Part shown: positions 1,459 to 42,291 of the stretch, in pieces | How positions within the stretch are numbered: position 1 is the stretch's first letter | Layout: every line of letters starts with the position of its first letter | DNA from: an uncultured Dehalococcoidales bacterium | GTDB lineage: Bacteria; Chloroflexota; Dehalococcoidia; E44-bin15 | Assembly: GCA_964438305.1 (NCBI GenBank) | Contig: CAYTKL010000001.1 | Span: 1-48,772 of the forward strand | Reading direction: 5' to 3' | Length of the DNA: 48,772 nucleotides | The notes under the pieces: generated by a model | Told to the model about the DNA's origin: nothing | Database searches by the model: none | The model's input: the letters and a program-made list of their open reading frames with translations, nothing else | Translations under genes and position numbers: made by a program

Positions 1459-1464
1459 GAGCTG

Positions 1465-2685: not shown

Positions 2686-2758
2686 TTCGGTCTGTGTATC
2701 CCATCCGGCGACAGCACATCCAGGGATGTCAGCTTCGGGGATCCCCTGTGGAGATTCG

Positions 2759-3976: not shown

Positions 3977-4004
3977 TGTCCTCCTGCCGTAGAATGCCGG
4001 ACCA

Positions 4005-5225: not shown

Positions 5226-5298
5226 ATCTGTGTAGCCTCGTCCTCTTTCTCGCCAGTCGTATTCCAGGGCGTCAACCCGGGGAGTCCCGCGATGCCGT

Positions 5299-6519: not shown

Positions 6520-6545
6520 GTTGCTCGCCTCCCATTCTCAAGCTT

Positions 6546-7760: not shown

Positions 7761-7799
7761 AGAACATACTCCCTTTGACAGTACTCGGCGGACAGAGGC

Positions 7800-9020: not shown

Positions 9021-9051
9021 CGCCCGCTTCACTTCCTTTGGATTCTCCAGT

Positions 9052-10364: not shown

Positions 10365-10451
10365 TTCCCTGTGGGCGGCGTTGGAGGTCGAGTCGCTGTT
10401 TCGGGTGAGTCGGCGCCTGCCATTTCGAGGCCGATAGGGGGTATCTCCAGA

Positions 10452-10480
10452 TTGACACTCCTATGGAAGTCGGATACACT
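10452..10480 (+). promoter_or_regulatory. Candidate sigma70 promoter for the mutase operon (TTGACA-17-TACACT)
   Basis: TTGACA at 10452..10457, 17-nt spacer, TACACT at 10475..10480. It is followed by the palindrome GCGTTGCAGCAACGC (10493..10507) and the SD AGGAGGA (10512..10518). Confidence 0.4.
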
Positions 10481-10523
10481 TCAATACAGTGAGCGTTGCA
10501 GCAACGCAGGTAGGAGGACTTGT

Positions 10524-12179
10524 ATGCCTAGCAAGAGCAAACAAGAGTGGCGGGATACCACCCTCAATAAGGCGTTGAGCCGTGCCCCAGAGCGTCAGGA
10601 GAGCTTTGAGATCAGCTCAGGGAGTGCGATCGACGCGCTGTATACACCTGAGGACCTGGAGGGGCACCCCTACGTAGATGACGTGGGGTATCCGGGAGAG
10701 TACCCCTTCACCCGCGGTATCCAGCCCACCATGTACCGGGGAAGGCTGTGGACCATGCGGCAGTACGCCGGGTTTGCCGACGCTGAGGAGTCCAACAAGC
10801 GCTACCGGTACCTTCTGGAACAGGGGCAAACGGGGTTGAGCATAGCCTTCGACCTTCCGACCCAGATCGGCTACGATTCAGACCACCCGATGGCTGCGGG
10901 GGAGGTTGGGAAGGTAGGGGTGGCGATAGACAGCCTGGCCGATGTCGAGGTGCTTTTCGACCAGATTCCCCTGGGTAAGGTAAGTACGTCGATGACGATA
11001 AACTCGACCGCACCGGTGTTGCTCGCCATGTACGTCGCCCTGGCCAAGAAGCAGGGAGTCGATCCAAAGGAGCTGAACGGTACAATCCAGAACGACATTC
11101 TGAAGGAGTACGTTGCCCGTGGCACTCATATCTTCCCGCCGCGGCCGTCGATGCGCCTGATAACCGATATCTTCAAGTACTGCGGGGAAGAAGTCCCCCG
11201 CTGGAACACCATAAGTATCAGCGGCTACCACATCAGGGAGGCGGGTTCCACGGCGGCGCAGGAGGTCGGTTTCACGCTGGCCAATGGCATCGCCTATGTT
11301 CAGGCGGCCATTGACGCCGGTCTGGACGTCGATGCCTTCGCCGGTAGACTCTCCTTCTTCTTCGCTTCCTACGGCAACCTCTTCGAGGAGGTGGCGAAGT
11401 TCAGGGCGGCTCGTCGCCTGTGGGCCAGGATCATGCGCGAACGTTTTGGGGCCAAAGAGCCTCGAAGCTGGATGCTGCGCTTCCACACCCAGACCTGCGG
11501 CCATACATTGACCGCGCAGCAGCCACTGAACAACATCATCAGGACTGCAGTGCAGGCTCTGGCGGCCGTGCTTGGCGGGACCCAATCCCTTCACACTAAC
11601 TCGTACGACGAGGCCTACGCTACCCCCAGCGAGGACGCGGTGACCATTGCCTTGCGTACCCAGCAACTGCTGGCCTATGAGACGGATGCCGCCAACATGG
11701 TGGACCCTCTAGGGGGCTCATTCATGGTGGAGTCACTGACCAATACCCTGGAGGAGGAAGCGAAAAACTACATAGCCAAGATTGACGAAATCGGTGACGC
11801 GCTGGCGGCGATCGAGGAAGGGTACCCGCAGCGGGAGATCCAGGAGAGTTCCTATCGAACCCAGAACGATATTGAGAGTGAGAAGAAGGTCGTGGTGGGC
11901 GTGAACAAGTTTGTCTCCCCCTATCCCAAGATAACAGGCCTTCTCAAGTTCGACCCTCAGGTGGCGATCAGGCAGAAGGAGCGCCTGGCTCAAGTGAAGC
12001 AAAGCAGGGACGGCGCCAAGGTGGGCGCTGCGCTGGAGAAGCTGCAGAAGGTGGCGTCGGGCAGCGACAACACCATGCCGGCGGTGTTGGAGTGCGTCGA
12101 GGCGTACGCAACCATCGGTGAAGTATGCGACGTACTTCGGGGAGTCTTTGGCGAACAAAGGGAATTCCTTGCCTTCTAG
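10524..12179 (+). CDS. Methylmalonyl-CoA mutase family, catalytic (N-terminal TIM-barrel) subunit
   Basis: ORF trimmed to the ATG at 10524, which follows AGGAGGA. Blocks [62 protein letters not shown] and [12 protein letters not shown] are characteristic of MCM large subunits. There is no B12 domain in this ORF. Confidence 0.9.
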
Positions 12180-26008: not shown

Positions 26009-27577
26009 ATGGCGACGCCGAGCGATGACGGCAGATTTCGGCTAAGCCAGCTTTGCCAGGCGATTTCGGGGAGAAGGAGCATTATCCTTGCCAGCAACCG
26101 AGGCCCCATTGACTATCACATCAATGAGGGGGGAAGGTTGCAGGGGCACCGAGGTAGCGGTGGGGTTGTAACTGCTCTCAGCGCGATCAGCCAGTTCATT
26201 GACGTTACCTGGATCTCGAGCGCGATGGGAGTGGGGGATCGCCAGGCCGCAGAGATGGCGCAGGGGAAACGGTTCAAAGCGTCCTTTCCGGGGCACAACC
26301 TTTTCCTTCGCTTCGTAGTCTCCTCGGGCAGCGTGTATCACAAGTTCTACAGCGTAATCTGCAACCCGCTTCTATGGTTCCTCCAGCACTATATGTGGAA
26401 CTCCACTCACACCCCGAACATCGATGCCCGGGTGTACGATGCCTGGGAGAATGGCTACGTGCGAGTGAACCGTACCATCGCCGATGCGGTGATCGACGAA
26501 GCCTTGAGGAACGAGACTCCTCCCCTGGTGATGCTCCACGATTATCATCTTTATCTGGCCGGCGGCTTCATTCGAGAACAGGTTCCCGATGCTATCATCC
26601 AGCACTTCACCCATATCCCGTGGCCTGAGACCCACTACTGGCAGCTTCTACCCAACGCGATGCGCCAGGCGATCTACGAGGGGCTGTGTGCCAGCGACAT
26701 TGTCGGCATGCAGACCAGGCAGGACGTGAACAACTTCCTCCATTCGTGTGAGGCGTTTGTTGAAGGCGCTGATGTCGACTACCGGGAACACACCGTGCGG
26801 CTGAACGGCCATCTCGTCAGGGTGAACCACTACCCCGTATCCGTGGACACCGCCAACTTGCTGAGGATAATCCGTTCGCCACTGGTGCAGGAGTACGAGG
26901 AGAAGCTGCGGCCCCTCTTCGGTGAGAAGACCATCCTCAGGGTCGACCGACTGGAGCCGAGCAAGAACATCGTGAGGGGTTTTCGAGCCTTCGACTTGCT
27001 GCTTCAGCGCTATCCGGAGCTTCAGGGGAAGGTTACCTTTCTTGCGTTGCTTGTCCCTTCGCGCATGCACATAAGGCAGTACCGAAGGTATGCCGACGAG
27101 GTCAACGAGGCGATCTCGGTGGTCAACGCCAAGTATGGCAACGAGGAGTGGCAGCCCATCAGGGTGCTGTATGAGAACAACTACGCCCAGGCACTCGCCG
27201 GCATGTGCCACTATGACGTCTTGCTGGTGAACTCCGTTATCGATGGGATGAATCTGGTGGCCAAGGAAGGACCAATAGTCAACAGCCGTGACGGTGTACT
27301 GGTACTATCCGAGACCGCTGGCGCCTGTGAGCAGCTTGGCGAGAATGCCCTGGCGATAACCCCAACCGACCTGGAGGGAACGGCTGAGGCGCTTTACCAG
27401 GCACTGTGCATGTCTCCCGAGGAGAGAAGGCAGCGAGCCGTTGCCCTCAGGGACAGTATTCAGGAACACGACGTCACCGCGTGGCTCTACGAGCAGCTTA
27501 AGGACGTGGTTGAGTTGGTGCAGGAGCAGTTCCAGCCAGCCACACAAGGAAGCGCTCTACGTCGCCTACCCCGTTGA
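26009..27577 (+). CDS. otsA: Trehalose-6-phosphate synthase (GT20)
   Basis: IILASNRGPIDY, NPLLWFLQHYMW, LHDYHLYLAGGF, ILRVDRLEPSKNIVRGFRAF and VNSVIDGMNLVAKE. Confidence 0.9.
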   Translation: MATPSDDGRFRLSQLCQAISGRRSIILASNRGPIDYHINEGGRLQGHRGSGGVVTALSAISQFIDVTWISSAMGVGDRQAAEMAQGKRFKASFPGHNLFLRFVVSSGSVYHKFYSVICNPLLWFLQHYMWNSTHTPNIDARVYDAWENGYVRVNRTIADAVIDEALRNETPPLVMLHDYHLYLAGGFIREQVPDAIIQHFTHIPWPETHYWQLLPNAMRQAIYEGLCASDIVGMQTRQDVNNFLHSCEAFVEGADVDYREHTVRLNGHLVRVNHYPVSVDTANLLRIIRSPLVQEYEEKLRPLFGEKTILRVDRLEPSKNIVRGFRAFDLLLQRYPELQGKVTFLALLVPSRMHIRQYRRYADEVNEAISVVNAKYGNEEWQPIRVLYENNYAQALAGMCHYDVLLVNSVIDGMNLVAKEGPIVNSRDGVLVLSETAGACEQLGENALAITPTDLEGTAEALYQALCMSPEERRQRAVALRDSIQEHDVTAWLYEQLKDVVELVQEQFQPATQGSALRRLPR

Positions 27578-28307
27578 GCGTGAAGTCCGCCTCCTCCGCC
27601 ACACCTGGTGGCGTCTCCTGCCCGATGACCCCCACGGCCAGCCCATGGAAACCCTGTGCGTGCATGGCGCCGAAGGCCTCCACATCGCTGGCGTCATCAC
27701 CGAGGTAGATGCCGCGCCGCAGGCTGTATGCCCTGACAAGGGCAACGACTGCGGCACCTTTGTCCACCTCTACGGGAGGGCGAAGCTCAACCACCATCTT
27801 CCCCTCGCGGACGCTGAAACCACTGGCTGCCGGGGAAGCTGCTACGGCGTCCATTATGAGCTTCTTCGCCGTCTGTGGGTCTGGACAACGCCGGTAGTGG
27901 ATGGAAAGCCCCACTGTCTTGTCCTCCAGAATAAGGCCGGACAGGTCCAGTGCTGCGCTGAGTTCGTTGAGGGCGGTGGCCACCTTCGCCGGGTAGCCTT
28001 CGAGGGCTGGGACGAAGCGTACGGCGCCGTTCTGCCACTGCTCCAGGCCGTGATTCCCCACGTACACCATCTCGTCAATCCCCACCATCCGTCTGGCGTC
28101 GAGAGCGGGCCGCCCCGAGATGGCGGCAACCAGTGCCAGGCGCCGCGTGAGGAGGGCAAGCTGTTCGTGGCAAATGGGGGAAACGCTGGCCTCTTGGGGG
28201 GATTCGGCTATCTCGCTTATTGTCCCGTCTATGTCGGTGATGAGGCCAAAGGGAGAGACGCTGAGCGCATCCGCAACCGTGTCTAGATGGTCGAAAAGGT
28301 AGGGCAC
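27498..28307 (-). CDS. otsB: Trehalose-6-phosphate phosphatase (HAD)
   Basis: GLITDIDGTISEI (DxDGT motif), VAAISGRPA, VYVGNHGLE and IYLGDDASDVEAF. Its 3' end overlaps the otsA 3' end by 80 nt. Confidence 0.85.
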   Translation of the reverse strand: MPYLFDHLDTVADALSVSPFGLITDIDGTISEIAESPQEASVSPICHEQLALLTRRLALVAAISGRPALDARRMVGIDEMVYVGNHGLEQWQNGAVRFVPALEGYPAKVATALNELSAALDLSGLILEDKTVGLSIHYRRCPDPQTAKKLIMDAVAASPAASGFSVREGKMVVELRPPVEVDKGAAVVALVRAYSLRRGIYLGDDASDVEAFGAMHAQGFHGLAVGVIGQETPPGVAEEADFTLNGVGDVERFLVWLAGTAPAPTQPRP

Positions 28308-28319
28308 CGGGCCATCTCC

Positions 28320-29291
28320 CTATTCATCATCCTCGGGCACGGGCGGCGGCTGGCGCCTGCGGCGTCGTGGCGGTGGTGGCGTTTCCACTGATGGGGGTTG
28401 CAGTTGTGCCTCAGGCGGGCCCGTCGGCGGTAGACCGCTGCCGAAGTAGACCTTGGTGTGCGGCCAGGGGATCTCGATGCCTGCTTCGTCGAAGGCCCTC
28501 TTGATTCTCTTCCTCATCTCGCCCATCGTCTCCCACTGGCGTATCGGTTTGGTGGTGCCCAGTATCTTGATGTCAATGCCGGAGTCACCGAGGCTGTCAA
28601 CTCGCAGTACCTGGGGGGGCTCGGTGATGATCGACTTCCAGTAGCTCTCCTTGGCCATCTCGGCACAGACTCTGTTGATGACGGCGATGGCGTGTTCCAG
28701 GTCGGTGCCGTAGGCCACGGACACGTTCAGGTTCACCCGCGACCACTCTCTGGTGAAGTTCGACGCCACCCTGATTTCACCGTTGGGGACGAAATGCACG
28801 ATGCCGTCAAGGTCACGCAGGATCGTCCGCCTCAGGTTAATCTCCTCCACTACGCCGGTAGTGTCGGCCACGCGTGCCACGTCCCCGACACGATACTGGT
28901 TCTCCAGCAGAATGAAGATGCCGGCGATGATGTCCTTGACCAGGCTCTGGGCGCCAAACCCAACGGCGATTCCGGCGATGCCAAGACCGGCGACCAGAGG
29001 GGTAACGTTTATTCCCACCTCCGCCAGAATCATGAAGATGGCGGCCACGACGACTATGAAGGTGCCGGTTCCCACCAGGATACGAGACAGGGTCTTGACC
29101 CTTTTCTCCGCCTCGTCCCTGTCTCTCTTGGTCACCCTCTTTCTCAGTCTTGGCGTCACTTTGACACTGTGCCTCAATACTGGCCCGACAAGTTTGCGGA
29201 GGGCAACGTACACAGCAACGCTGACGGCGATGATGATGAGAATCCGAACGCCGTGAGAGGCAAGCCAGCCAAGTACAGCGCTCCAGTCCAT
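28320..29291 (-). CDS. Small-conductance mechanosensitive channel (MscS family) with Pro/Arg-rich C-terminal tail
   Basis: Trimmed to the ATG at 29291, which follows the SD GGAGGG. It has three N-terminal TM segments. GFGAQSLVKDIIAGIFILLENQYRVGDVARV and GVVEEINLRRTILRDLDGIVHFVPNG are MscS core blocks. Confidence 0.85.
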   Translation of the reverse strand: MDWSAVLGWLASHGVRILIIIAVSVAVYVALRKLVGPVLRHSVKVTPRLRKRVTKRDRDEAEKRVKTLSRILVGTGTFIVVVAAIFMILAEVGINVTPLVAGLGIAGIAVGFGAQSLVKDIIAGIFILLENQYRVGDVARVADTTGVVEEINLRRTILRDLDGIVHFVPNGEIRVASNFTREWSRVNLNVSVAYGTDLEHAIAVINRVCAEMAKESYWKSIITEPPQVLRVDSLGDSGIDIKILGTTKPIRQWETMGEMRKRIKRAFDEAGIEIPWPHTKVYFGSGLPPTGPPEAQLQPPSVETPPPPRRRRRQPPPVPEDDE

Positions 29292-29509
29292 GACAGTCCC
29301 TCCTACCTTCCCGTTCGGCGGCGAGAAAACGAGAACATCGCCAGAGAAAAGAACGGGGAGTGCCCGAATGCGCACAGGATAGCAGAAACCTGCAGGCGAG
29401 AAAAGCCTCCCTGGAATGCGGCGCTGTGCCTCCCTGGCGAAGGTGGGGTGGAGTTGGCCGACACACAAGGGCTCCTTAGAGGCAATTGGATGAGCTTCCG
29501 GAGCGGGTG

Positions 29510-31639: not shown

Positions 31640-32128
31640 ATGGAAGGCAATATCATTGTTGCTCTCCGCCAGAACCATGCCCTGGAGCATGCCACGGTCT
31701 CGCTACTCATCAAGAGAGTGGGTCCGAATGTCAGGATGGTCGGGATCTCGACTCACGACGGTTTCTACATCTTCGGGGATGTGCCCACGGACGCCGTTCG
31801 AGAAGCGGCAACGGAGGGCTTGGAGCGCCTGAAGAAGGGTGATAGTGAGCTGGCAGTGTCGCCGTTCTGTGGGACGAACCTCGTTGTCGCGGGGACAATG
31901 GCGGGGCTGGCGAGCCTGATGGTCATGGGGAGCAAAGACCGCAGGAAGAAGGTGCTGCCGGTCATCGTGGCGGCCACACTGGCTATTATCGCGGCTCGCC
32001 CCGTGGGGAGGGCGGCGCAGAAGTATGTGACCACCTCCTCCGACGTCGCTGACGTGAGCATCAGGCGAATCACCCGTCGCGGCGTGGGCAATCGGATACT
32101 GCACAAGGTAGAGACCGCGCGCGAATAG
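31640..32128 (+). CDS. Conserved hypothetical protein with NHALEH motif and one or two hydrophobic segments
   Basis: Trimmed to the ATG at 31640, which follows GGGAGG. MEGNIIVALRQNHALEHATVSLLIKRVG, SPFCGTNLVVAGTMAGLASLMVMG and VIVAATLAIIAARPVG. I cannot confidently name a family. Confidence 0.55.
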   Translation: MEGNIIVALRQNHALEHATVSLLIKRVGPNVRMVGISTHDGFYIFGDVPTDAVREAATEGLERLKKGDSELAVSPFCGTNLVVAGTMAGLASLMVMGSKDRRKKVLPVIVAATLAIIAARPVGRAAQKYVTTSSDVADVSIRRITRRGVGNRILHKVETARE

Positions 32129-32147
32129 TGGAAAGGAGACGTTTGGA

Positions 32148-32915
32148 ATGTCCGTATTTGACCTGACTGACAAGGTGGCTATCGTTACCGGTGGAGGTAG
32201 CGGGATAGGGCGAGGCATCGCTGTTGCCTTCGCCCTGGCGGGTGCGGATGTGGTGGTGGCCGGCCGGAGGCCGGACGTTCTGGAGAAGGCGGCTGCGGAT
32301 ATCAAAGCCGCGGGCCGGCGTTCTCTGGCGGTGCAGACTGATGTGACGCAGGCTGAGCAAGTGGAGAACCTGGTCAAGAAGACTTTGGACAAGTTCGGCA
32401 GAATCGACATCCTGGTCAATAATGCGGGCGGTGCCGCCGCGTGGCCGCTGGAGAAGATGTCGCCCAGGGGATGGGATGTGGTTCTGGCCATAAACCTCAA
32501 GGGAACGTTCCTCTGCAGCCAGGCGGTGGGGAAGGTAATGGTGGAGCAGAAGGAGGGCAAGATCATAAACATCTCGTCGGTCGCTGGACTGAGAGCCTCG
32601 CCAGGCTCGGCACACTACGGAGCCGCCAAGGCCGGCGTTATCAACCTGACCCGATCCCTGGCTGCGCTGTGGGCCGGGAACAACGTGCATGTGAACTGCA
32701 TTGCGCCTGGTCTCATCGACACGGAGGCGGTGAGGCCGGCGCTGAACCTGGAGGACCCGGAGAAGATGAAGGAGCGGGCGAAGGCGATACCCCTGGGGCG
32801 TGTGGGGCAGCCCGAGGACATTGCGTACGCGGCGGTCTTTCTCGCTGCCCCGGCGTCGAACTTCATAACCGGCCAGACAATGGTGGTCGACGGCGGCTCT
32901 GAAGCCATCCGCTGA
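32148..32915 (+). CDS. Short-chain dehydrogenase/reductase (FabG-like)
   Basis: VAIVTGGGSGIGRGIA (TGxxxGxG), NNAGG, SSVAG, and YGAAKAG (YxxxK), and PGLIDT. Confidence 0.9.
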   Translation: MSVFDLTDKVAIVTGGGSGIGRGIAVAFALAGADVVVAGRRPDVLEKAAADIKAAGRRSLAVQTDVTQAEQVENLVKKTLDKFGRIDILVNNAGGAAAWPLEKMSPRGWDVVLAINLKGTFLCSQAVGKVMVEQKEGKIINISSVAGLRASPGSAHYGAAKAGVINLTRSLAALWAGNNVHVNCIAPGLIDTEAVRPALNLEDPEKMKERAKAIPLGRVGQPEDIAYAAVFLAAPASNFITGQTMVVDGGSEAIR

Positions 32916-32957
32916 CCGCCAGTCCCCTGTGTTATTGTAAGGGGCGCCACGCCCCTG

Positions 32958-33047
32958 TGTCATTGCGAGGAGCGAAGCGACGAAGCAATCCCGGAGTATA
33001 GGGAGCCAGAGGTTGCTTCGGCTGGCTTCGCCAACCTCGCAATGACA
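32958..33047. repeat. 90-nt imperfect hairpin element
   Basis: TGTCATTGCGAGG (32958..32970) is the exact reverse complement of CCTCGCAATGACA (33035..33047). Inner arms also pair: GCGAAGC with GCTTCGC, and GAAGCAA with TTGCTTC. Confidence 0.85.
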
Positions 33048-33107
33048 GTAATGTACCCCACTTCGCATACTCTGTGTTCGCGATGGCAATCGGCGTGGCT
33101 GATTCCG

Positions 33108-33163
33108 AGGGGCTTCTGCCGCCTTGTCAATACAAGGGGCTTCTCCCGCCTTGTCAACGTAAG
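33108..33163. repeat. Two tandem ~28-nt direct repeats
   Basis: AGGGGCTTCTGCCGCCTTGTCAATACAA is followed directly by GGGGCTTCTCCCGCCTTGTCAACGTAA. Confidence 0.8.
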
Positions 33164-33235
33164 GGGCGTCACCCCCCCGCTGTGTCATTGCAGGGGGTGC
33201 AACCCTCCTTTGTCATTGTAAGGAGCGCACCCCCC

Positions 33236-33554: not shown

Positions 33555-34148
33555 TTACGGGAACACGTCCTGATACCCGTCCGCATCTGTCGCGGTGCAG
33601 GCGGAGCCGACGCATAGCGATACCACGTTCTCGTCGGTGTTGTTCCAGTAGTAGACATAGTGAGCCGAGCTGGAGCAGGTGCACGTAGTGTTGCCCACGC
33701 TGGCAACGTCACAGTTGTCGTCGAGGGTCCCTGACTGCAGGATTGCCGAACTGGGAACCGTGTCGCCCTCGAAGTACCCCAGGGCCACCAACTCACAGAT
33801 GTTGATGATGGCCCACTCGTCGACGACGTCCTGACCAGCCAGACCATCGCCGCTGCCCCCACGCCAAGCGAAGCCGGAGTCACCATCCATGTCACCACTG
33901 GCGTCGTACACCGGGTAGTCGTAGTCATGGCCCACCCAGTAGTCGAGGCACGCATTTTCGAGCGTGCTCTTGTGGAGGTCATAGCTCGTTGACTGAGCAC
34001 CGCCGCCGAAGCCGCCGATGGCGTAGATCACACCGCCGAGCAGGATCGCCACGATGACCATCACGATGAGCATCTCTATCAGAGTGAAGCCCCGCTCGCC
34101 GCCGTCTTTCCTGAGCCCCAATGCCTTGAATCGCTTCATAACATCCAT
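33555..34148 (-). CDS. Type IV pilin / pseudopilin (probable major subunit), prepilin-type N-terminus
   Basis: MDVMKRFKALGLRKDGGERG then FTLIEMLIVMVIVAILLGGVIYAI. This is a basic leader ending in Gly, Phe at +1, Glu at +5 and a hydrophobic helix. The globular part has 7 Cys. The SD GGAGGTG lies upstream. Confidence 0.9.
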   Translation of the reverse strand: MDVMKRFKALGLRKDGGERGFTLIEMLIVMVIVAILLGGVIYAIGGFGGGAQSTSYDLHKSTLENACLDYWVGHDYDYPVYDASGDMDGDSGFAWRGGSGDGLAGQDVVDEWAIINICELVALGYFEGDTVPSSAILQSGTLDDNCDVASVGNTTCTCSSSAHYVYYWNNTDENVVSLCVGSACTATDADGYQDVFP

Positions 34149-34479: not shown

Positions 34480-35247
34480 TCAACCCGACAGCAGGCGCAA
34501 GAGCCAATCGGAAATGGGCTGTGCCCACAACAAGGTGACCATGGCCGCTACGGCAAGGAAGGGGCCGAAGGCGATGGCGTGCTTCCTGGTTCTTCTGCCG
34601 AATGCGAGAAGCAGGATGGCTAGCAGGCCGGCGGGCACTATGGCGAGTGCGAGGGCGAGAAGAACATGGGGGAAGCCGGTAGCCAGCCCGATAAGCCCCG
34701 CCAGTTTGACGTCGCCGCCTCCCATGCCGCCCCGCGAGAGCAGATATGGGGCTAGCAGAAGTGAGAAGCCTATTACCCCTCCCAAGAGCGCGCTCAGAAT
34801 CCCCACGCTTGGCCATTCCAATCCAGGCCAGAAAAAGGAGAAGACAAGCGCCAGGACCATCCCCGGGTACACTACCACATCGAGGATGAGGCCGTGTTCA
34901 AGGTCGGTTACAAAGATCACCAGGAAGATGCAGGCGTAGGCCAGAGCCATCGGTAGTTGTGGGGTCAGGCCATAGTGCCACGTGAGCAGGGCGAATAGAA
35001 GGGCCGTCGTCAGCTCCGTCACCGGTACCCGCAGCGAAATGCGAGCGCCACAGTGACGGCATCGACCGCGCAGCCAGAGGTAGCTGAAAAGAGGCACCAG
35101 GTCACCGAACCCGAGCCTTTGCTGGCACTGTTCGCAGTGGGAAGGGGGAGTGATAATGGAGCGCCGATGTGGCAGACGATCGCAGCACAGGTTGAGGAAA
35201 CTGCCCACAGCGAGTCCGAGTAGGGCGAAGAGGGGGATGGCTATCAT
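34480..35247 (-). CDS. pilD: Prepilin peptidase / N-methyltransferase (A24 family)
   Basis: N-terminal zinc motif CEQCQQ...CRHCGARIS, multiple TM segments and GMGGGDVKLAGLIGLATG (GxGDxK catalytic Asp block). Confidence 0.9.
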   Translation of the reverse strand: MIAIPLFALLGLAVGSFLNLCCDRLPHRRSIITPPSHCEQCQQRLGFGDLVPLFSYLWLRGRCRHCGARISLRVPVTELTTALLFALLTWHYGLTPQLPMALAYACIFLVIFVTDLEHGLILDVVVYPGMVLALVFSFFWPGLEWPSVGILSALLGGVIGFSLLLAPYLLSRGGMGGGDVKLAGLIGLATGFPHVLLALALAIVPAGLLAILLLAFGRRTRKHAIAFGPFLAVAAMVTLLWAQPISDWLLRLLSG

Positions 35248-36125
35248 AATGCCCTGAGGATGAGGCCGAGGTTCACCGCGTAGTCCGCGACGGGCAGGTC
35301 GCTTGGGCAGCGGAGCGGTGGGTGCAGCTTGGCAACGGGGTGGTCGATTGCACCGCTGGCAGCGAGTTGGAACGTCTGGTCTCCGGCTGCGGTGCCCGTC
35401 AGGTATACCGGCAGTTGCGGTGCGAGCGGGTTGTCCCGATAGTCAGTAGAGTACAAGGAGACGGCCTGCACCAGTTCCTGGCCGACGTGGCCGACCACGT
35501 GATCAATGGTGCCGGAGTCCTCGCCCAGGTAGACGCTGCGAATGACCATGGGCACACCATCGCGTACAATAGTCACGTCGACGCTGGTTGCCTCCCCGTT
35601 GGCGATGATGGCGTTCCTCTTGTTCACCGCTCGCATGAGCGCCATTGGTTTCAATTCAATGACGCTCGGCTTGAGTCCGGCTGCGTCGAAGGCTCTGAGC
35701 GAGGTGGTAAAGGGTCCCCGTGGTAGCAAGACGATGTATACACGCTGCTTGCCATTGCCGTTGGGCAATACCTGCCAACGGATGTGCCACTGCGCGGGAT
35801 GGCCGTCGGTCAGCCTCCTCACCTCTCGACGGAGTACACCGTCCAACAGCTTGCTGTTCAGAGGGGGCAGGTTGAGGATTCGCACCGTGGTGCCGAGGGC
35901 GGAGTGGGCCCAGAGAATCCTCCCCTTTGACAGCTTGCGCTCTGCGAGGGCGGCGCGGATCAGACCTCCCAACCCGGCTGGGTCAGCGACATGGCCCTTC
36001 TTGAGAAACTGGGGAGCGAAGGGTATGGTGTCCCAGGTCTCCACGGTGCGGCCGGTAGCGCTGACCACTCTCAGTGAGTTGCCTTCGATACTCAGAGCGA
36101 CGAGCCGTTTTGCTATTGCAAACAT
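35244..36125 (-). CDS. pilM: PilM-like pilus assembly protein (actin-like fold)
   Basis: 293 aa. N-terminal LVALSIEGNSLRVVS, RILNLPPL, IELKPMALMRAV and VYLTGTAAG follow the PilM layout. 4-nt overlap with pilD. It lies next to the PilN/PilO-like genes. Confidence 0.6.
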   Translation of the reverse strand: MFAIAKRLVALSIEGNSLRVVSATGRTVETWDTIPFAPQFLKKGHVADPAGLGGLIRAALAERKLSKGRILWAHSALGTTVRILNLPPLNSKLLDGVLRREVRRLTDGHPAQWHIRWQVLPNGNGKQRVYIVLLPRGPFTTSLRAFDAAGLKPSVIELKPMALMRAVNKRNAIIANGEATSVDVTIVRDGVPMVIRSVYLGEDSGTIDHVVGHVGQELVQAVSLYSTDYRDNPLAPQLPVYLTGTAAGDQTFQLAASGAIDHPVAKLHPPLRCPSDLPVADYAVNLGLILRAL

Positions 36126-36146: not shown

Positions 36147-36716
36147 CTAGGGCCGGGCATAGACGATGATATCGATGCTGATGGTCCAGTACGCCGGCTC
36201 CTCTTCGGTGGCGACGACGAACTCGATGACTACGTTCTTTATGACCGTGGTCTCGTACGGTGCGTTCACCTCCAGTTCATCGAGGAAGGCATAGAGGGCC
36301 GGCAGCTTGTCCGCGGCGGCGCCAACCTCATAAATGAAGGCTTTGTACACCGTCCCGTTGTTGTTCAGAAACACGTCGATCGGGCCCTCGGGGATGAAGC
36401 GCTGGCCCTGGACTTCAGCGTTCTGGAGCCCGTAGATCACGAGGTCGTTGACTTCGATGTTCTCCACGTCGTCGGCTTTGGGGAAAGCCGAATCATCGAG
36501 TTCTTCCTGGAGGGTGGCAAGGGCGGCTTCCAGTGCGTCCAGGTCGTACTGGTTCTCGATGCTGGCGATGTCACTTTCTACGTCGGCCATCTGTGTCTCC
36601 AGGTCGGAAGCCGCTTGCACCTGCTGCACGATGACTACGGTGAAGTATACCCCCAGTCCAATCAGGGCGACCACCGCCACCAAGAGGAGGAGCTGTAGTT
36701 GAGTCAGCTTCTTCAT
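36147..36716 (-). CDS. PilO-like bitopic pilus assembly protein
   Basis: 189 aa. Short N-terminus, one TM (LQLLLLVAVVALIGLGVYFTVVIV), a coiled-coil-like acidic segment and a small C-terminal domain. The call rests on position (between the PilN-like gene and PilM) and topology only. Confidence 0.4.
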   Translation of the reverse strand: MKKLTQLQLLLLVAVVALIGLGVYFTVVIVQQVQAASDLETQMADVESDIASIENQYDLDALEAALATLQEELDDSAFPKADDVENIEVNDLVIYGLQNAEVQGQRFIPEGPIDVFLNNNGTVYKAFIYEVGAAADKLPALYAFLDELEVNAPYETTVIKNVVIEFVVATEEEPAYWTISIDIIVYARP

Positions 36717-38200
36717 TCAGCACCTCCTGTTTGCTTGAGTGTTACAGTGATGATGAAGGCGTAGGGAGGGGTGTATCCAGTGACTTCCCAGTAGAGGTAG
36801 TCGTAGGCCTCCTCCATCGATATGGTATCGTCCTCGTTCACATCCGCGGGTCCGTTAAGTCCCTCGACGAAGTAGTAGGTGAACACCCCGTTCTCTAACA
36901 GAGGGTCTTCGTAGGAGTACTGCTCTTCGTCACAGGCGGTGAGTACCACACCCTCTATTGTCTCGTTGAGGTCCCGGGCAAAGCCGTCGCCATCACGCGG
37001 CGCAACTTCGCCGGGAGAGCCCTTGCTCGCGGCAAGGCCGTACTTGAACATGCCGCCACTGTAGCAGGTGTCGATCGCTACCAACACGGGGCTGCCAGGC
37101 AGTCCGCCAAGCCACACGCCCAGCTCATCATCCGTGATGCCCGACATTGGGTCGAAGAAGTCGAAGTCGTATGGGCAGAGGACCTCGTCGTAGTCATCGG
37201 CTTCGTCGAGCGGCATTTGGTCGGCAATGATGCCTCCGTGTCCCGAGAAGTAGAAGAAGAAAACGTCGTCGGCGTCACCGTTGGCTGCCATGTAGTCGAT
37301 GGCGTCCTCTATCCCCGACTTGGTCGCGGCATCGTCTATGAGCATAGTGATGTGGCTATCCTGCCAGTTGGGGTAGTCAAGCAGCACCTCACGTACGTCC
37401 TCGGCATCGTCGTCGGTGTAGCTCAGAGGAGTGAGACCCTGGCCCGGTGGATAGTCGGCGACTCCGACGATCACCGCCCAGTACTCCACGCCAACTGTGA
37501 CGTTGGCTGCTGTGACCAGGGTGGCTTCACCTGTCCAGTTGTCGTACATCTGGGGCGTCTGCTCCAGGTCAGCCCTTCCCCTTTCGGTAATCTGATAGGT
37601 CCACTCGATGTCCGGGTCGTAGGGAGGTGAATCGTGGAACAACTCGCTCTCAAGAAGGGCGTGAGCATACTCGGAGATGCGGATGCTGGCGTCGGTGATG
37701 CCCTCGACGACTACCTGATTGCCGTCCTGGGCGATGTAGGTCAGGTCTATTTCCGCCGGTGCCAGGTCATCGATCTCTTCCACGACGTCGGACCACGGCG
37801 CGTAGGTGAACATCTGGTCGTAGGCCTGTTCATAGTCGACCAGTGTGCTGGTCGTGCTGTCGATCTCCTCCAGCATCGACTTCGCCTGCGGTATCAGGTT
37901 GGTCTTGAGTCCACTCAGGTGGTCCTGGCGCTGCGCTAGCTCCGCCTCGAGGTCAGCTACGTGGTCCTGCTTGTCCGACATGTATCCATAGAGATTGGGC
38001 AGGTCCGGCGCAGCCTCGACCATGGCGAAGGGCAGCATCGCGTACCCTAGAATCAGAACGAGGACCACGAGGAGGATGCTGAGGTTGGGCACCGAGACGG
38101 ACAGTTGGGACTTGGCCGTGCTGTGCTTCACCTTGCCGTCAAAGAGATTGATCTCGAGCGGCGAATCTGTGCGGTCCAGAGGTTCCTGTTTGTCAGCCAT
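36713..38200 (-). CDS. PilN-like pilus assembly protein fused to a caspase-like (peptidase C14-type) domain
   Basis: - **PilN-like part (residues 1-190):** EINLFD (compare the PilN INLLP motif), TM LSILLVVLVLILGYAMLPFAMV, a coiled coil, and WSDVVEEIDDLAPAEIDLTYIAQDGNQVVVEGITDASIRISEYAHALLESELF.
- **Caspase-like part (residues ~238-470):** YWAVIVGVADY, DDVFFFYFSGHG (His321, codon 37238..37240), VLVAIDTCYSG (Cys379, codon 37064..37066) and NGVFTYYFVEGLNGPADVNEDDTISMEEAYDYL. Confidence 0.8.
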   Translation of the reverse strand: MADKQEPLDRTDSPLEINLFDGKVKHSTAKSQLSVSVPNLSILLVVLVLILGYAMLPFAMVEAAPDLPNLYGYMSDKQDHVADLEAELAQRQDHLSGLKTNLIPQAKSMLEEIDSTTSTLVDYEQAYDQMFTYAPWSDVVEEIDDLAPAEIDLTYIAQDGNQVVVEGITDASIRISEYAHALLESELFHDSPPYDPDIEWTYQITERGRADLEQTPQMYDNWTGEATLVTAANVTVGVEYWAVIVGVADYPPGQGLTPLSYTDDDAEDVREVLLDYPNWQDSHITMLIDDAATKSGIEDAIDYMAANGDADDVFFFYFSGHGGIIADQMPLDEADDYDEVLCPYDFDFFDPMSGITDDELGVWLGGLPGSPVLVAIDTCYSGGMFKYGLAASKGSPGEVAPRDGDGFARDLNETIEGVVLTACDEEQYSYEDPLLENGVFTYYFVEGLNGPADVNEDDTISMEEAYDYLYWEVTGYTPPYAFIITVTLKQTGGAE

Positions 38201-38248
38201 TGGAACGTCCTTCTAACGTAAATTAACTATAAGTGCCAGTAGTTGGCT

Positions 38249-38277
38249 ATTATATCAGATGGCTACCTAAAAGTCAA
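38249..38277 (-). promoter_or_regulatory. Near-consensus sigma70 promoter for the pilN-caspase/pilO/pilM/pilD unit (TTGACT-17-TATAAT with TG extension)
   Basis: On the minus strand, the -35 TTGACT is plus 38272..38277, the spacer is 17 nt, and the -10 TATAAT is plus 38249..38254. It carries the same TGATATAAT nonamer as the pilin promoter. It lies in an AT-rich island ~50 nt upstream of the 38200 start. Confidence 0.6.
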
Positions 38278-38458
38278 TACTTAGACCTTTAAAGATTATC
38301 TACAATGAACCACTACTCATTGTAGGCTATAGCAATGCAAACGGGCCGGGCTCCGACTCCGAGATGTGAGACTCGCCAACCTATGCCACCTCGACCTGTC
38401 GCGATGACCGATAGTTATGCGCAACCGCTGTGTCCGCCGGGCAGCGGCCTCACCAGGG

Positions 38459-40369
38459 CTAGTCGTATTGGTAGCTCAGGATACTGACCGGCAGCACGCC
38501 CGGGTCGGTGCTTGGGTCGGTGCGGAAGGAGAGGATGACGTAGATCAGGTTCCAGGAATCGACCCACGTGCCGAGGAGAACCTCGGCCTCTGTCTGGCCC
38601 GGGGTGACGTAGGGTGTCGCGTCGAAAGTGTCAATGTCCACACCGTCAATGAACTCGCCGTCGAGGCCACTGGACTTGCCGTTCCACACGTCGTCTTGGG
38701 GGTTGACCCCGTCGTAGGGGTCATCCTCGTGCGGCAGGAGGTGACCTTCGAACCGCAGGTAGTCGGAGTTGTAGGCATCGTCCCCCTCGCCGACGAAGAC
38801 GGTGAGGCGGGCCCCCTCGTCGCCGGGATCAAGCTCTGGCACGAGGAAACCCTCTATCGCGTCCAGGTACACGTTCTGGTACATCTCCATGTAGAAGAAG
38901 TCATCGTAGAGGTACATCTGGTGGGCGTTCTCGTCTTGGTGCGAATACACTACGACCAGCGACCAGCCGGCATAGGACCACTCGTCGTCGGTGGCCCAGT
39001 AGTAGCCTCTATACTGCCCGTACCACAGACCGTATTCATCATCGATGCCGTCTATTCTCCTCACCTTATAGCTGCAATTGGGGCTGTCGAGTGCGGCGAC
39101 CAGGTCGGTGACGTCGGCGCGACAGGAGAAGGCCCAGCCGTGGCCTGAGCCGTCGGAATTGGTGTTCGGCAGTATCTGTACCCGGTCGGCGTCTACGTCG
39201 ATATCGATCCAGGTTCCCCCCGACTGCTTGGTGCCCAACCGTGCCACGTCCACTTCCTCGGCGAGTTCGACAAGCTCCTCTTCTTCGTAGTCGGTGATGT
39301 CAACTGGGTACCTCCTCCACGCCGACCAGTAGAGGTAGGCCAGCTCGATACTGGCGCCTTCAGGGATATCGCTGAGAGTGGCCGTGGTGTCCTCGGCCCG
39401 GTAGAGGAGCGTTTCGCGGCGCAGGTTGCTGTTTTGGTCCTCCATCAAGCTGCTGCCGATGGCGCGATAGTCCCCGTACGCTTCGCTCAGTTCCTCGTAG
39501 ATTTCCGAGCTGCCGACAAAGGCCTGGAGGGCAACGTCCTCGTCGGTCTCTTGGTGTACTGCGGTGGACGAAACCGCGTAGAGGTCGCTGTCCACGTCCC
39601 ATGACAGATAGATGTCATGTCGAGTCGTCCGTATCCAACTGAACTCACCGCTGGGGTCAAGCGCTGGCGTGAAGTCGAAGTAGAGCAGCCTTCGGAGAGG
39701 GTACTCGAAGGAACCGCCTTCGCCGCCTCCTGGCGGAGGAAGGTCCTCGAACAGGACGCCCTCGGGGGTGGTGAACTCCCATTCGAGAGCCGTGCCCCCG
39801 CGGAAGGAACTGGCGGTGGGATTGTCAGGAACGTCCTCGTGAGTGGTGATTCCGCTGGCCGAATCGGTGATGTACGTGAAGCCGGCCGGGAGCCATGCCC
39901 CCACCTTGTCCAGCTTGAGGTTGCCGTCCAGCGAGCCGTCGTAGGTCATCTCGATCCTGAATGTCCCGCCGTCTTCCCCCATCTCGACCACGTGGCTCAC
40001 GACGGCCAACTCGTCGTGAGGGACTGTCCCGTAGATTGGGGTCTCCAGGCCATCCAGTATCCAGACGGCCTCGATGCTGACCTCCACCTCGCAGCCGTTG
40101 ACGTCCTGTATGGTGTACACCCAGGGGTCGTCCCCGTACTCCGGAAGGTCGTCGTGCTGGTTTTGCACCTTGTGAGCCGCATCCTCGACGCCGGCATCAG
40201 CGGCGTAGAACTGCGACGTCCATTCCTGGTGTCGCTGGGCGCTGCGCATTCCCGATGCCATGAAGACCAGGAGCGGCACCACCACGATGCTCACCATGAG
40301 CACAAGTATAAGGACGAAGGAGAGCACGTAGCCGTCCTCATTGTGCCGCAGCCTCACAATCCTGTTCAT
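38459..40369 (-). CDS. Large PilX/GspK-like minor pilin-like protein with a big C-terminal domain
   Basis: 636 aa. The N-terminus EDGYVLSFVLILVLMVSIVVVPLLVFMASGMRSAQRHQEWTSQFYAADAGVEDA follows the PilX N-terminal pattern (hydrophobic helix, then a QAFYAAEAG-like block). The C-terminal half (YLYWSAWRR, WSLVVVYSHQDE, LTVFVGEGDDAYNSDYLRFEGH, DVWNGKSSG, DIDTFDATPYV) reminds me of DUF3344-type domains, from memory and unverified. Confidence 0.55.
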   Translation of the reverse strand: MNRIVRLRHNEDGYVLSFVLILVLMVSIVVVPLLVFMASGMRSAQRHQEWTSQFYAADAGVEDAAHKVQNQHDDLPEYGDDPWVYTIQDVNGCEVEVSIEAVWILDGLETPIYGTVPHDELAVVSHVVEMGEDGGTFRIEMTYDGSLDGNLKLDKVGAWLPAGFTYITDSASGITTHEDVPDNPTASSFRGGTALEWEFTTPEGVLFEDLPPPGGGEGGSFEYPLRRLLYFDFTPALDPSGEFSWIRTTRHDIYLSWDVDSDLYAVSSTAVHQETDEDVALQAFVGSSEIYEELSEAYGDYRAIGSSLMEDQNSNLRRETLLYRAEDTTATLSDIPEGASIELAYLYWSAWRRYPVDITDYEEEELVELAEEVDVARLGTKQSGGTWIDIDVDADRVQILPNTNSDGSGHGWAFSCRADVTDLVAALDSPNCSYKVRRIDGIDDEYGLWYGQYRGYYWATDDEWSYAGWSLVVVYSHQDENAHQMYLYDDFFYMEMYQNVYLDAIEGFLVPELDPGDEGARLTVFVGEGDDAYNSDYLRFEGHLLPHEDDPYDGVNPQDDVWNGKSSGLDGEFIDGVDIDTFDATPYVTPGQTEAEVLLGTWVDSWNLIYVILSFRTDPSTDPGVLPVSILSYQYD

Positions 40370-40471
40370 TGGCGTACTCCTCTCGGGTCGGGCAAACCCC
40401 TGTGGCCCGCAGGTTTCGCAGCGCGTCGATGGCTACCGCCAGCCTCGCAAGGCGAGCAAGCCCCATCCCCG

Positions 40472-41884
40472 CTATTCCGCCGTCCCTGTCACCCGCAGCG
40501 TCCAGGTGTCTATATGGCCGATGTCCCACCTAGCGTAGTCTCGGACAGACAGCTTCCATTCCCCCTGGGATTGCTTGCCGTTGAAGGTCGATATGTAGTT
40601 GTACCACCGGTAGATGTTGTCGGCACCGCCACCTGACTGGTTGTGCAGCATCTCGTAGGTGCCGTCGGGATGTATCACCGCTACCTGCAAGTCGCCGATG
40701 TAGGTGTGTTGAATGCCGACGTACACGTCGATGTTGGTTATGGTCAGATTGTCACCGCCGGGGACGGTAATGAGGCTGTCGACCCATCCATTGCGGTCGG
40801 GGATGAACACATCCTGATCGTTGGTGTACGTGAAGGTCTGCGGCCCAGGTGTGGGAGTGGGCGTGGGTGTGGCTGTCGGCGTAGGAGTTGGTGTGGGTGT
40901 GGGAGGGGGAGTGGGCGTGGGCGTAGGAGTTGGTGTGGGCGTGGGCGTAGGAGTCGGTGTGGGCATAGGAGTTGGAGTTGGTGTGGGCATAGGTGTAGGG
41001 GTTGGAGTGGGTGTGGGCATGGGAGTCGGAGTCGGTGTGGGCGTAGGCATAGGTGTTGGAGTTGGTGTGGGCATAGGCGTAGGCGTAGGAGTAGGCGTGG
41101 GGGTAGGTGTTGGTGTGGAGGGAGGTGATGGGGTGGCGACGGGTACGGGCAACCCGGTGAAGGGCCTCGGTTCGATATCGTAGATTCTCGTTGCGACCTG
41201 GTCGCCGACGTGGGCGGTGACTACCAGTCTCAAGACGTAGTTGTCCCAGTAGGCGTTGGTCTGCGGCATGCAACTGACCTCTGTACCGCTTGGGTGAGCC
41301 GCCGACGTGGTGCCGTAGGCCCCCCGTGTGCAGTCGACGAATGTGGTGGTCGTCTTGCCTCCGAACTCGATCAACTCGTCCTCGATGAGCAGGACTCCCG
41401 ATGTCGGGAAGTCACTCGTGCTTGACACGGTAACGGTAGTATCCTCCTCATCCATCGCTTGGCTGAGCAGTGCGCCGTATGCGGTTGTGTCAAGATAGTC
41501 GGCAACGGCGGTGTCCTCCTGCAACTCGCCATTGATGGAGTAGGCGCGCCTCAGTTCTCTGCTGCCGTCGGTGCCGTCAGTCAGGGTGTAGACTGCCTGG
41601 TACAGGTCGCCATACCAATCGGCCCAGTAGAAGGCGAGGAAGTCCTCGGTCGCAGGGTCATAGTCCACCACGACCTGCTGAGCTCCGACTGCGTCGTGAC
41701 TGACCCAATAGCCGGCGTGCTGCACCTGTCGGTAGGCGGTCATGTGGTCTCTATTGAGTCGGGAAGTGAGGAACAACTGGTATGCGGCCACGGTGACGGC
41801 GGAAGCGATGATACTGCCTATCAGCATGACGATGATAAGCTCGACGAAAGTGAAACCCTTTTGACCCGTTCTGCTGACCATCAC
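40472..41884 (-). CDS. Pseudopilin (GspJ/PilW-like N-terminus) with (TP)n linker and C-terminal proprotein-convertase P-domain
   Basis: - **Prepilin N-terminus:[10 protein letters not shown] then [20 protein letters not shown].
- **Linker (residues ~247-346):** almost pure TP/MP repeats.
- **C-terminal ~120 aa:[105 protein letters not shown] matches the P_proprotein domain pattern. Confidence 0.8.
40848..41130. repeat. Coding tandem repeat, (ACN CCN)n encoding the TP/MP linker
   Basis: The plus strand reads GGTGTGGGNGTNGG-type hexanucleotide repeats. Periodic CAT (Met) codons define 24-30-nt higher-order units. Confidence 0.9.
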
Positions 41885-42291
41885 CGGTCCACCTTGTACT
41901 CGGATACTGAGAATACCTGCTCGCCGCCAGCGGCGATTGTCACGGTTACCTGCTGAATCCCCTCGTCGTCGCCAGTGCCGTTTTCGCTGGGGTCGAGACG
42001 CACCGCGGTTACCTGCACCGCGAAGTTGTTGTTGTACGGGTCAGAGCTCAGGTCGATGTCCGGGTCGACAGCGTACTGAGGTGGGTTGTTGAGTTCGTCA
42101 TAGGAGCAGAGCTTGATGTACTCAAGTTCGGCCCGGGCCAGGCTCTCCGCTATGGTGCGGTCATTGACGTCGTCGGTCGTCTTGTAGGTGATGTGCATAG
42201 CAGTAAGAAGGCTGCTCACCACTACGCCGAGGATAGTCATAGCGATGATGACCTCGAGCAGAGTCTGCCCTTTCTGATCCCTGATTCTCAT
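41881..42291 (-). CDS. Minor pseudopilin (GspI/PilV-like)
   Basis: MRIRDQKG then [21 protein letters not shown] (Glu at +5, hydrophobic helix). 136 aa. 4-nt overlaps with both neighbours. Confidence 0.7.

Follow-up and report, generated by a model that had tools for sequence, protein, structure and literature searches.

Domain architecture of the 470-residue protein

The DNA analysed here, a stretch of 48,772 nucleotides of contig CAYTKL010000001.1 from an uncultured Dehalococcoidales bacterium (Chloroflexota) and referred to below as the window, contains a type IV pilus operon on its minus strand. One gene of this operon (40472..41884, minus strand; stop codon 40472..40474) encodes a 470-residue protein with the architecture of a modular minor pilin: a pilin body is followed by a long proline/threonine tether and by a C-terminal P-domain of the type known from proprotein convertases. 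The gene was delineated from the list of open reading frames (ORFs) and the translation, and an independent metagenome contig (L010, described below) carries it as well. Translation starts at a GTG codon that overlaps the stop of the pilin gene upstream. An exact-sequence look-up of the 470-residue protein returned no record.

The class III (prepilin) leader comprises residues 1–10 (41855..41884) and ends with Gly10 at the predicted cleavage site QKG/FTFVE. Read directly from the sequence, a glycine occupies position −1, a glutamate position +5, and a hydrophobic N-terminal segment follows the leader. The Pfam model N_methyl (PF07963) matches residues 7–30 with 29.9 bits (cut-off 21.2), and TIGR02532, the NCBIfam prepilin cleavage/methylation model, also scores above its cut-off (26.8 versus 16.3 bits). 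The prepilin N-terminus claimed by the first-pass annotation, an earlier reading of the DNA letters, is thus borne out by the motif and by both models.

The pilin core that follows the leader is divided in two. Its first part (residues 11–133; 41486..41854), delimited with an AlphaFold2 (AF2) model and an alignment with the insert-less relatives P0164–P0167, contains the hydrophobic α1 helix and the first β-sheet. The second part (residues 208–247; 41144..41263) supplies the last β-strands, its limits being given by alignments A1 and A4 and by the stop codons in ten orthologous loci. Between the two lies a ~70-residue phage-tail/baseplate-like insert (residues ~134–207; 41264..41485), which was recognised as a gap in P0164–P0167 and P0174, from PHROG families and from Foldseek matches in BFVD. 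The complete body accounts for ~237 of the 470 residues. The ~230-residue pilin-like body described earlier is therefore present, but it is composite, and the motif that had been quoted for it falls in the phage-like insert.

The linker (residues 248–348; 40841..41143) was defined by composition, codon usage and Tandem Repeats Finder. Its 101 residues comprise 50 Pro, 40 Thr, 5 Met, 2 Ala, 2 Ser, 1 Val and 1 Gly, in agreement with the TP/MP linker of about 100 residues noted at first pass. Methionine recurs every 8–10 residues, mirroring a higher-order repeat of 24–42 nt. At the DNA level the repeat is imperfect, with ~72% matches and many synonymous codons, and the third codon positions are strongly diversified: their G+C content (GC3) is 0.475 versus 0.72–0.81 in the operon neighbours.

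The C-terminal P-domain, with a short tail, occupies residues ~349–467 (40475..40840) and was assigned from Pfam, from conserved columns and from profile comparison with the PDB. The Pfam model P_proprotein (PF01483; we take IPR002884 to be the accession of the same domain) matches residues 384–464 with 65.2 bits (E 5.7e-18; cut-off 21), the match extending over positions 3–85 of the 86 in the profile. In an alignment with 25 relatives, the 8 invariant columns and the 9 nearly invariant ones are all retained in the domain. With the profile of this alignment, the PDB yields the Aeromonas sobria ASP (3hjr, E 2.8e-11) and furin (E 2.6e-4) P-domains; such a profile is needed, as single-sequence phmmer of the P-domain against the PDB gave only a spurious match to a designed protein, and phmmer with the whole 470-residue protein gave only low-complexity matches to TP/PA repeats. 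The fold is presumably a galactose-binding-like β-sandwich.

No Peptidase_S8 match, which would mark a subtilisin-like catalytic domain, was obtained in the 470-residue protein or in the scanned proteins of the 48.8-kb window. By domain content, then, the protein is not a proprotein convertase, with which it shares the accessory domain alone. The first-pass annotation had described just such a P-domain without a protease domain and had proposed profile searches with PF01483 and PF07963; both models score above cut-off, and every peptide string that it quoted is present in the translation. A combined full-length alignment (A3), in which MAFFT placed P-domain segments on the body at identities of ~22%, was not used.

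Fold of the pilin body and its phage-like insert

The AF2 model of the body, calculated from alignment A4, has a mean pLDDT (per-residue confidence) of 80.5 and a pTM (overall confidence) of 0.69, with a helix at residues 13–65 followed by antiparallel strands. An earlier AF2 model based on the shallower alignment of 13 close orthologues reached a pLDDT of 48 and was discarded. The body is thus predicted to adopt a pilin fold, consisting of a long α1 helix and a β-sheet globular domain.

The distant core pilins P0164–P0167 and P0174 (149–179 residues) align only to residues 1–133 and ~205–242. The intervening insert, which these distant core pilins lack, occurs in every close orthologue. No Pfam family covers residues ~134–207; the insert matches the PHROG families phrog_2885 (E 3.8e-13), phrog_4406 (E 3.8e-12), phrog_9851 (tail fiber) and phrog_1101. 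Its relatives are phage baseplate-wedge, tail-fibre and virion structural proteins, and other non-pilin proteins match too. A Foldseek comparison with the predicted viral structures of BFVD gave 25 matches at E<=1e-3, the tightest of which superimpose over ~75–85 columns with a root mean square deviation of ~2 Å and 26–37% identity. The relative P0163 carries the same module at residues 83–148, another place in the pilin.

Integrity of the gene and linker variants in sister populations

The linker corresponds to ~300 nt of low-complexity repetitive DNA, in which two of the three related contigs break. Such a repeat could have joined unrelated sequences during assembly and produced a chimeric ORF, the outcome that the first-pass annotation had named as able to undo its proposal. 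The three contigs concerned are JGI metagenome contigs from other samples that match the window at >99% identity. The first of them, L010 (Ga0180434_10024250), is 99.2% identical to window positions 43046..37152 and carries the entire gene in frame; its 460-residue ORF has lost 30 nt of the linker without a frameshift and otherwise shows four synonymous substitutions. In L009 (Ga0180433), which runs from the body into the linker, 6 nt are inserted in the linker, whereas L004 (Ga0180431) starts inside the repeat and runs across the linker-to-P-domain junction into the P-domain, with 6 nt deleted in the linker. Each junction is therefore crossed once more in another sample, the sequences on either side of the repeat are parts of a single syntenic operon, arranged as expected, and the imperfection of the repeat likewise speaks against an artefact. 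The chance that the ORF is an assembly artefact arising within the repeat is practically negligible, and the concern about misassembly was tested and refuted by L010 together with L009 and L004.

The same contigs show that linker length varies among the sister populations. The variants (−30, +6 and −6 nt relative to the window) are all in frame and are multiples of six.

The tether and P-domain as a lineage-specific addition

Searches with the pilin body yielded 12 close clusters of 241–249 residues at 54–66% identity, all from uncultured Dehalococcoidales/Chloroflexota; in species-representative genomes, homologues of the body occur exclusively in uncultured Dehalococcoidales and Chloroflexota metagenome-assembled genomes. 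All 12 close orthologues stop exactly where the linker of the 470-residue protein starts, ending in IEPRPFLGQ or IEPRPLM. In the ten orthologous loci that were fetched, the pilin stop lies 0–12 nt from the start of a ~630-residue gene. Therefore, the tether and the P-domain represent a lineage-specific graft, added at the native C-terminus (residue ~245 in the orthologues) in this lineage only. Scanned with the P-domain profile, neither the rest of the window nor any related locus contains a further P-domain.

In the window, the P-domain stop is followed by a 102-nt spacer (40370..40471), as opposed to the 0–12 nt that separate the two genes in the orthologues. This spacer contains neither a terminator nor a promoter, its fold is not unusually stable (z +1.09), and it ends in the GAGAGGAG ribosome-binding site of the 636-residue gene. 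It may have arrived together with the grafted segment.

The origin of the grafted P-domain was sought by composition and by homology. The domain has a GC3 of 0.79, like the rest of the operon (0.72–0.81); a foreign origin on compositional grounds was rejected, and the acquisition is therefore not very recent. Among 1.84 billion representative proteins, 7626 P-domain relatives were found at E<=1e-3, and no donor is visible: the best 150 of the 7626 are at most ~48% identical, except for the near-identical fragment P0013, which is also all that a word-based homologue search with the P-domain recovered. A prepilin N-terminus occurs in none of the best 149 of the 7626 relatives, and no second pilin with the same fusion appeared in any search made.

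The graft might have had no functional consequence, the tether and P-domain having been captured recently from another gene and tolerated without use. The fusion has indeed been seen in a single population (three sister metagenomes, >99% identity) and might therefore be young and matter little, and the few differences in the P-domain between sister populations include two non-synonymous ones, N429S and N435D. Against neutral accretion stand the intact invariant and nearly invariant positions of the P-domain, the reading frame kept through three independent linker indels, the host-like GC3, and the identity of at most 48% to the closest P-domain among the 1.84 billion representatives, which leaves no recent donor in view. 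Taken together, this explanation is considered quite unlikely.

Position in a minor-pilin triplet

The 470-residue protein is the middle member of a triplet whose genes encode 136 residues (with Glu5), 470 residues (with Glu5) and 636 residues (without Glu5). The 136-residue minor pilin (41881..42291, minus strand; GQTLLE) occupies a GspI/PilV/ComGE-like position, has an N_methyl match and is 74% identical to the second 136-residue pilin of the orthologous locus L001; its matches to gspI, ComGE and PilV are weak and below cut-off. The 636-residue protein (38459..40369, minus strand), in a GspK/PilX-like position, has one N-terminal hydrophobic helix in a hydrophobicity scan and lacks Glu5 (EDG/YVLSF). 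No match to it was obtained in Pfam, NCBIfam or the PDB sequences.

The same triplet order is found in the orthologous loci, and the distant Chloroflexota locus L014 repeats it with proteins of 148, 179 and 800 residues. Relatives carry the triplet twice, as 136/171/366 and 136/243/628 residues (L001 5496..10644, compared with window 38459..42291). The window and L009, which belong to the same population, have the second triplet only, directly after the PilC-like gene; at this locus the lineage thus lacks one of the triplets, besides having acquired the P-domain.

In the GspI-J-K and PilV-W-X systems, the subunit that lacks Glu5 caps the tip complex. We infer from gene order and from the distribution of Glu5 that the triplet mirrors this tip (priming) complex, in which the 470-residue protein would take the place of GspJ/PilW. 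The relative P0163 has been named 'type II secretion system protein J' by NCBI.

Relatives of the P-domain and its proposed role

The closest P-domain relatives show 38–48% identity. The nearest P-domains are found with a trypsin-like peptidase, S8 subtilases, a BNR sialidase-like domain, a metallophosphoesterase, a transglutaminase or in proteins that otherwise contain only PKD/Ig domains. They often occur as 2–18 tandem copies in proteins of 2000–5000 residues, and 69 of 148 relatives among the matches listed have a copy at the C-terminus. The bacterial P-domain is thus a promiscuous extracellular module, and given such varied partners, the lack of an adjacent protease is unremarkable in bacteria.

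The gene probably encodes a true minor type IV pilin of the modular kind, with a tip-displayed binding module on a tether, a reading that is held with moderate confidence. Presentation of the module at the pilus tip, offered at first pass as an alternative, fits the I/J/K-like position in the triplet and the modular-pilin concept (PMC8179133). The A24 prepilin peptidase encoded in the operon would cleave the leader, and the α1 helix would then bring the protein into a tip complex with its 136- and 636-residue neighbours. The Pro/Thr segment would act as an extended, possibly O-glycosylated spacer. Polyproline-II-like linkers extend by ~0.2–0.3 nm per residue; with this geometry, the tether would measure ~20–30 nm. 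The P-domain would hang past the pilus tip as a ligand-binding module, for adhesion or capture, and its likeliest role is inferred to be that of a tip-displayed binding module. Pilin, tether and P-domain would correspond to the carrier, stalk and effector of published modular pilins.

In the distant Chloroflexota pilus locus, genes for a PMT_2 glycosyltransferase and a GtrA-like protein flank the pilus genes (L014 7698..9737). No PMT_2 or GtrA-like gene was found among the window ORFs scanned, so that an O-glycosylated tether is without local genetic support.

Several points weigh against tip display of a binding module, in addition to the single-population distribution and the two P-domain substitutions given above. 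The assignment of the body to GspJ/PilW is based on gene order. Family models for GspJ/PilW (TIGR01711 gspJ, HpsC or similar profile hidden Markov models) match only the N-terminal helix, far below cut-off, in both the target and its core relatives. Foldseek of the body model against the PDB returned nothing at E<=0.001; the best match by Foldseek probability (0.60) is chain C of 5bw0, the XcpV-XcpW complex, and is not significant (E 0.16, TM-score 0.26/0.37). To our knowledge, no binding function has been established for any bacterial P-domain outside proteases. Finally, a 101-residue tether would equally suit display at the membrane without incorporation into a pilus, the α1 helix serving as a membrane anchor or as part of a short pseudopilus, with the Pro/Thr segment spanning the envelope; wall-spanning Pro-rich regions occur in Gram-positive surface proteins. 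Published modular pilins join their module by a short linker, although flexible linkers are also allowed, as in CofB (PMC8179133), and the tether here is far longer than those short loops.

Surface display of this kind would be in keeping with the window, in which neither a secretin nor a PilT-like retraction ATPase was found. It is harder to reconcile with Glu5 and the canonical cleavage site, and the conserved middle slot in the minor-pilin triplet, together with the 54–66% identity of the body to orthologues without a tether, suggests that the pilin role has probably been retained. Surface display without pilus incorporation is accordingly regarded as unlikely, and the tip-displayed module is preferred.

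The PilN-caspase fusion

Another fusion in the operon is a PilN-like protein of 495 residues joined to a caspase domain (36713..38200, minus strand; caspase domain at residues 241–452), identified by Pfam matches to PilN and Peptidase_C14 and by a match to NF047832. It has one transmembrane (TM) helix at residues 42–60, which is predicted to leave the caspase domain outside the membrane. Both catalytic residues, His321 (SGHG) and Cys379 (DTCYSG), are present, and the module is real and appears competent. The fusion is kept in the orthologous operons L001 and L003 (491 residues, 60% identity); in L002, a Peptidase_C14 gene, for which Peptidase_C14 is the only domain on record, takes the same slot. 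L014, a more distant locus, showed no such fusion. No P-domain is present in L001, L002 or L003. The PilN-caspase fusion is thus conserved without any P-domain, and the function of the caspase therefore does not depend on one.

The first-pass annotation had taken the caspase-like module for the sole protease domain of the locus and had suggested that it might form a split protease/accessory pair with the P-domain. The former statement does not hold, as the operon also encodes an A24 prepilin peptidase (34480..35247). In the latter proposal, the tethered P-domain would dock on the extracytoplasmic caspase domain and stabilise or regulate it, as in kexin and furin. The two modules share an operon and a predicted location outside the membrane, the His/Cys dyad of the caspase is intact, and P-domains are known in general to support the catalytic domain in furin, kexin and ASP, of which ASP and furin were recovered here as PDB relatives. 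The known partnerships are covalent, however, and involve S8 subtilases rather than C14 peptidases; the nearest P-domains are borne by a range of unrelated enzymes and by Ig/PKD proteins without an enzymatic domain, and a tether of 101 residues favours distal display over a fixed complex. With caspase genes retained in L001–L003, where P-domains are absent throughout, the split pair is not supported and is judged very unlikely. A looser version, in which the P-domain and the PilN caspase constitute a pilus-associated proteolytic or processing device with the P-domain as a detachable or tethered regulatory or substrate-recruiting partner, added in this lineage, is likewise judged very unlikely in view of the caspase genes that are kept without a P-domain. 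If true, it would represent a P-domain partnership outside the subtilases and a type IV pilus platform that incorporates a protease.

The pilus operon and its genomic surroundings

On the minus strand, the operon encodes in order a PilB-like protein, a PilC-like protein, the 136-residue pilin, the 470-residue pilin, the 636-residue protein, the PilN-caspase fusion, a PilO-like protein, a PilM-like protein, the A24 peptidase and a 197-residue pilin. The PilB-like ATPase (43600..45348, minus strand; T2SSE and MshEN in Pfam) and the PilC-like platform protein (42288..43499, minus strand; T2SSF in Pfam) precede the triplet. The PilO-like protein (36147..36716, minus strand) is a bitopic protein of 189 residues according to a TM scan. 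The PilM-like protein (35244..36125, minus strand; 293 residues) has a weak match to TIGR01175 pilM, and its L001 orthologue a weak match to PilM_2; both the PilM-like and the PilO-like assignments are based on weak matches and topology. The A24 prepilin peptidase (minus strand), expected to process the leader, is supported by PF06750 and PF01478. The 197-residue protein (33555..34148, minus strand; ERG/FTLIE) is a candidate major pilin with N_methyl and N-terminal GspH, GspG and ComGC matches, and is 58% identical to the 190-residue pilin of L001. The earlier assignment of a type IV pilus locus is upheld by the T2SSE, T2SSF, PilN and A24 peptidase matches together with the pilins. An Arg-rich ORF of 372 residues at 32070..33188 has no matches and was judged spurious.

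The MshEN domain lies at the N-terminus of the PilB-like ATPase. MshEN binds cyclic di-GMP in other systems, and its presence here hints at second-messenger control of the pilus.

The window is chromosomal and encodes alanyl-tRNA synthetase, shikimate-pathway enzymes, a CLC channel, queuine tRNA-ribosyltransferase and consecutive CoA-transferases. Seven consecutive ORFs of 404–501 residues lie on the minus strand at 220..9305; the two that were scanned (220..1458 and 7800..9305) belong to CoA-transferase family III, which suggests a tandem array of paralogues. A methylmalonyl-CoA mutase gene (10371..12179, plus strand) follows this run. Genes for trehalose-6-phosphate synthase (GT20, plus strand) and a trehalose phosphatase (minus strand) occupy 26009..28307 and adjoin a mechanosensitive channel gene (28320..29468). 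The trehalose genes, the channel and the strong acidity of the pilus proteins are consistent with an osmotically stressed, saline habitat.

Comparison with known systems

Modular pilins are a published class of more than 1,200 proteins with 264 architectures (Raynaud et al. 2021, PMC8179133). The 470-residue protein agrees with the definition of that class in combining N_methyl and P_proprotein in one ORF; it departs from the short-linker trait through its 101-residue tether, a difference of degree. Dataset S1 of that study, which lists the 264 architectures, has no IPR002884 or PF01483 entry. No pilin with a proprotein-convertase P-domain was found in the literature, in a check that was not exhaustive, and nothing relevant was found on the minor pilins of Chloroflexota or Dehalococcoidia. 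The first-pass annotation knew of no described pilin with this architecture, in agreement with that literature check, with the list of 264 architectures and with the best 149 of the 7626 P-domain relatives.

The closest parallels are PilB (pilin and vWA) and PilC (pilin and lectin) of Streptococcus sanguinis, which likewise join an N_methyl/IPR012902 pilin module to a C-terminal domain that is not pilus-specific (PMC8179133; PMC9934059). PilB presents its vWA module, for which an adhesin function has been shown (PMC8179133). As in S. sanguinis, the protein described here is a minor pilin of a system without an identified secretin, and display by the filament, probably at the tip, is expected. 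It differs from the S. sanguinis pilins in having a P_proprotein effector, a 101-residue Pro/Thr tether instead of a short loop, and a phage-tail-like insert, and its host is an uncultured member of the Chloroflexota. CofB of the type IVb pilus of enterotoxigenic Escherichia coli resembles it in combining a pilin module, a flexible linker and β-rich C-terminal domains in a predicted tip adapter/binding device (PMC8179133). The CofB domains are, in contrast, a β-repeat and a β-sandwich without a database signature, and CofB is a homotrimer of a diderm T4b system.

The GspI-J-K (XcpV-W-X) and PilV-W-X complexes are alike in the order of a small Glu5 pilin, a medium Glu5 pilin and a large subunit without Glu5. 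Relative to GspJ/PilW, the 470-residue pilin passes no family model beyond the N-terminal helix, and the structural match has the insignificant E value given above. We know of no GspJ or PilW with a tethered C-terminal module. With kexin, furin and ASP (3hjr) the protein shares the P-domain family PF01483; its P-domain is separated by 101 residues from the rest of the protein instead of being packed on a catalytic domain, and S8 domains are absent from the window proteins scanned.

In the modular-pilin view, simple type IV filaments acquire new functions when effector modules are grafted on a pilin carrier. Here the grafting step is visible almost as it happened: orthologues at 54–66% identity stop at the native C-terminus, one population extends from exactly that point, and strain-level variation in tether length accompanies the graft. 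The modular-pilin repertoire is thereby enlarged by a P-domain effector, a Pro/Thr stalk of ~100 residues as the connector and a module of phage tail/baseplate type inside the pilin fold. The practical impact is limited, as the organism is uncultured. A survey of predicted fibrillar adhesins or 'fibrillar enzymes' reported one cluster whose best structural match was the P_proprotein domain of 3HJR, and it left undecided whether the P_proprotein-like terminal module is catalytic or adhesive (Monzon et al. 2022, PMC9210967). Fibrillar adhesins and the present pilin have in common a stalk and a terminal domain; the stalks of the former are Ig-like repeats anchored to the cell wall, whereas that of the latter is a low-complexity Pro/Thr segment on a pilus subunit. 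The arrangement supports a view of P-domains in bacteria as surface modules of general use rather than as accessories confined to proteases. By comparison with these systems, the 470-residue protein is a new example of the known modular-pilin strategy and not a new kind of system.

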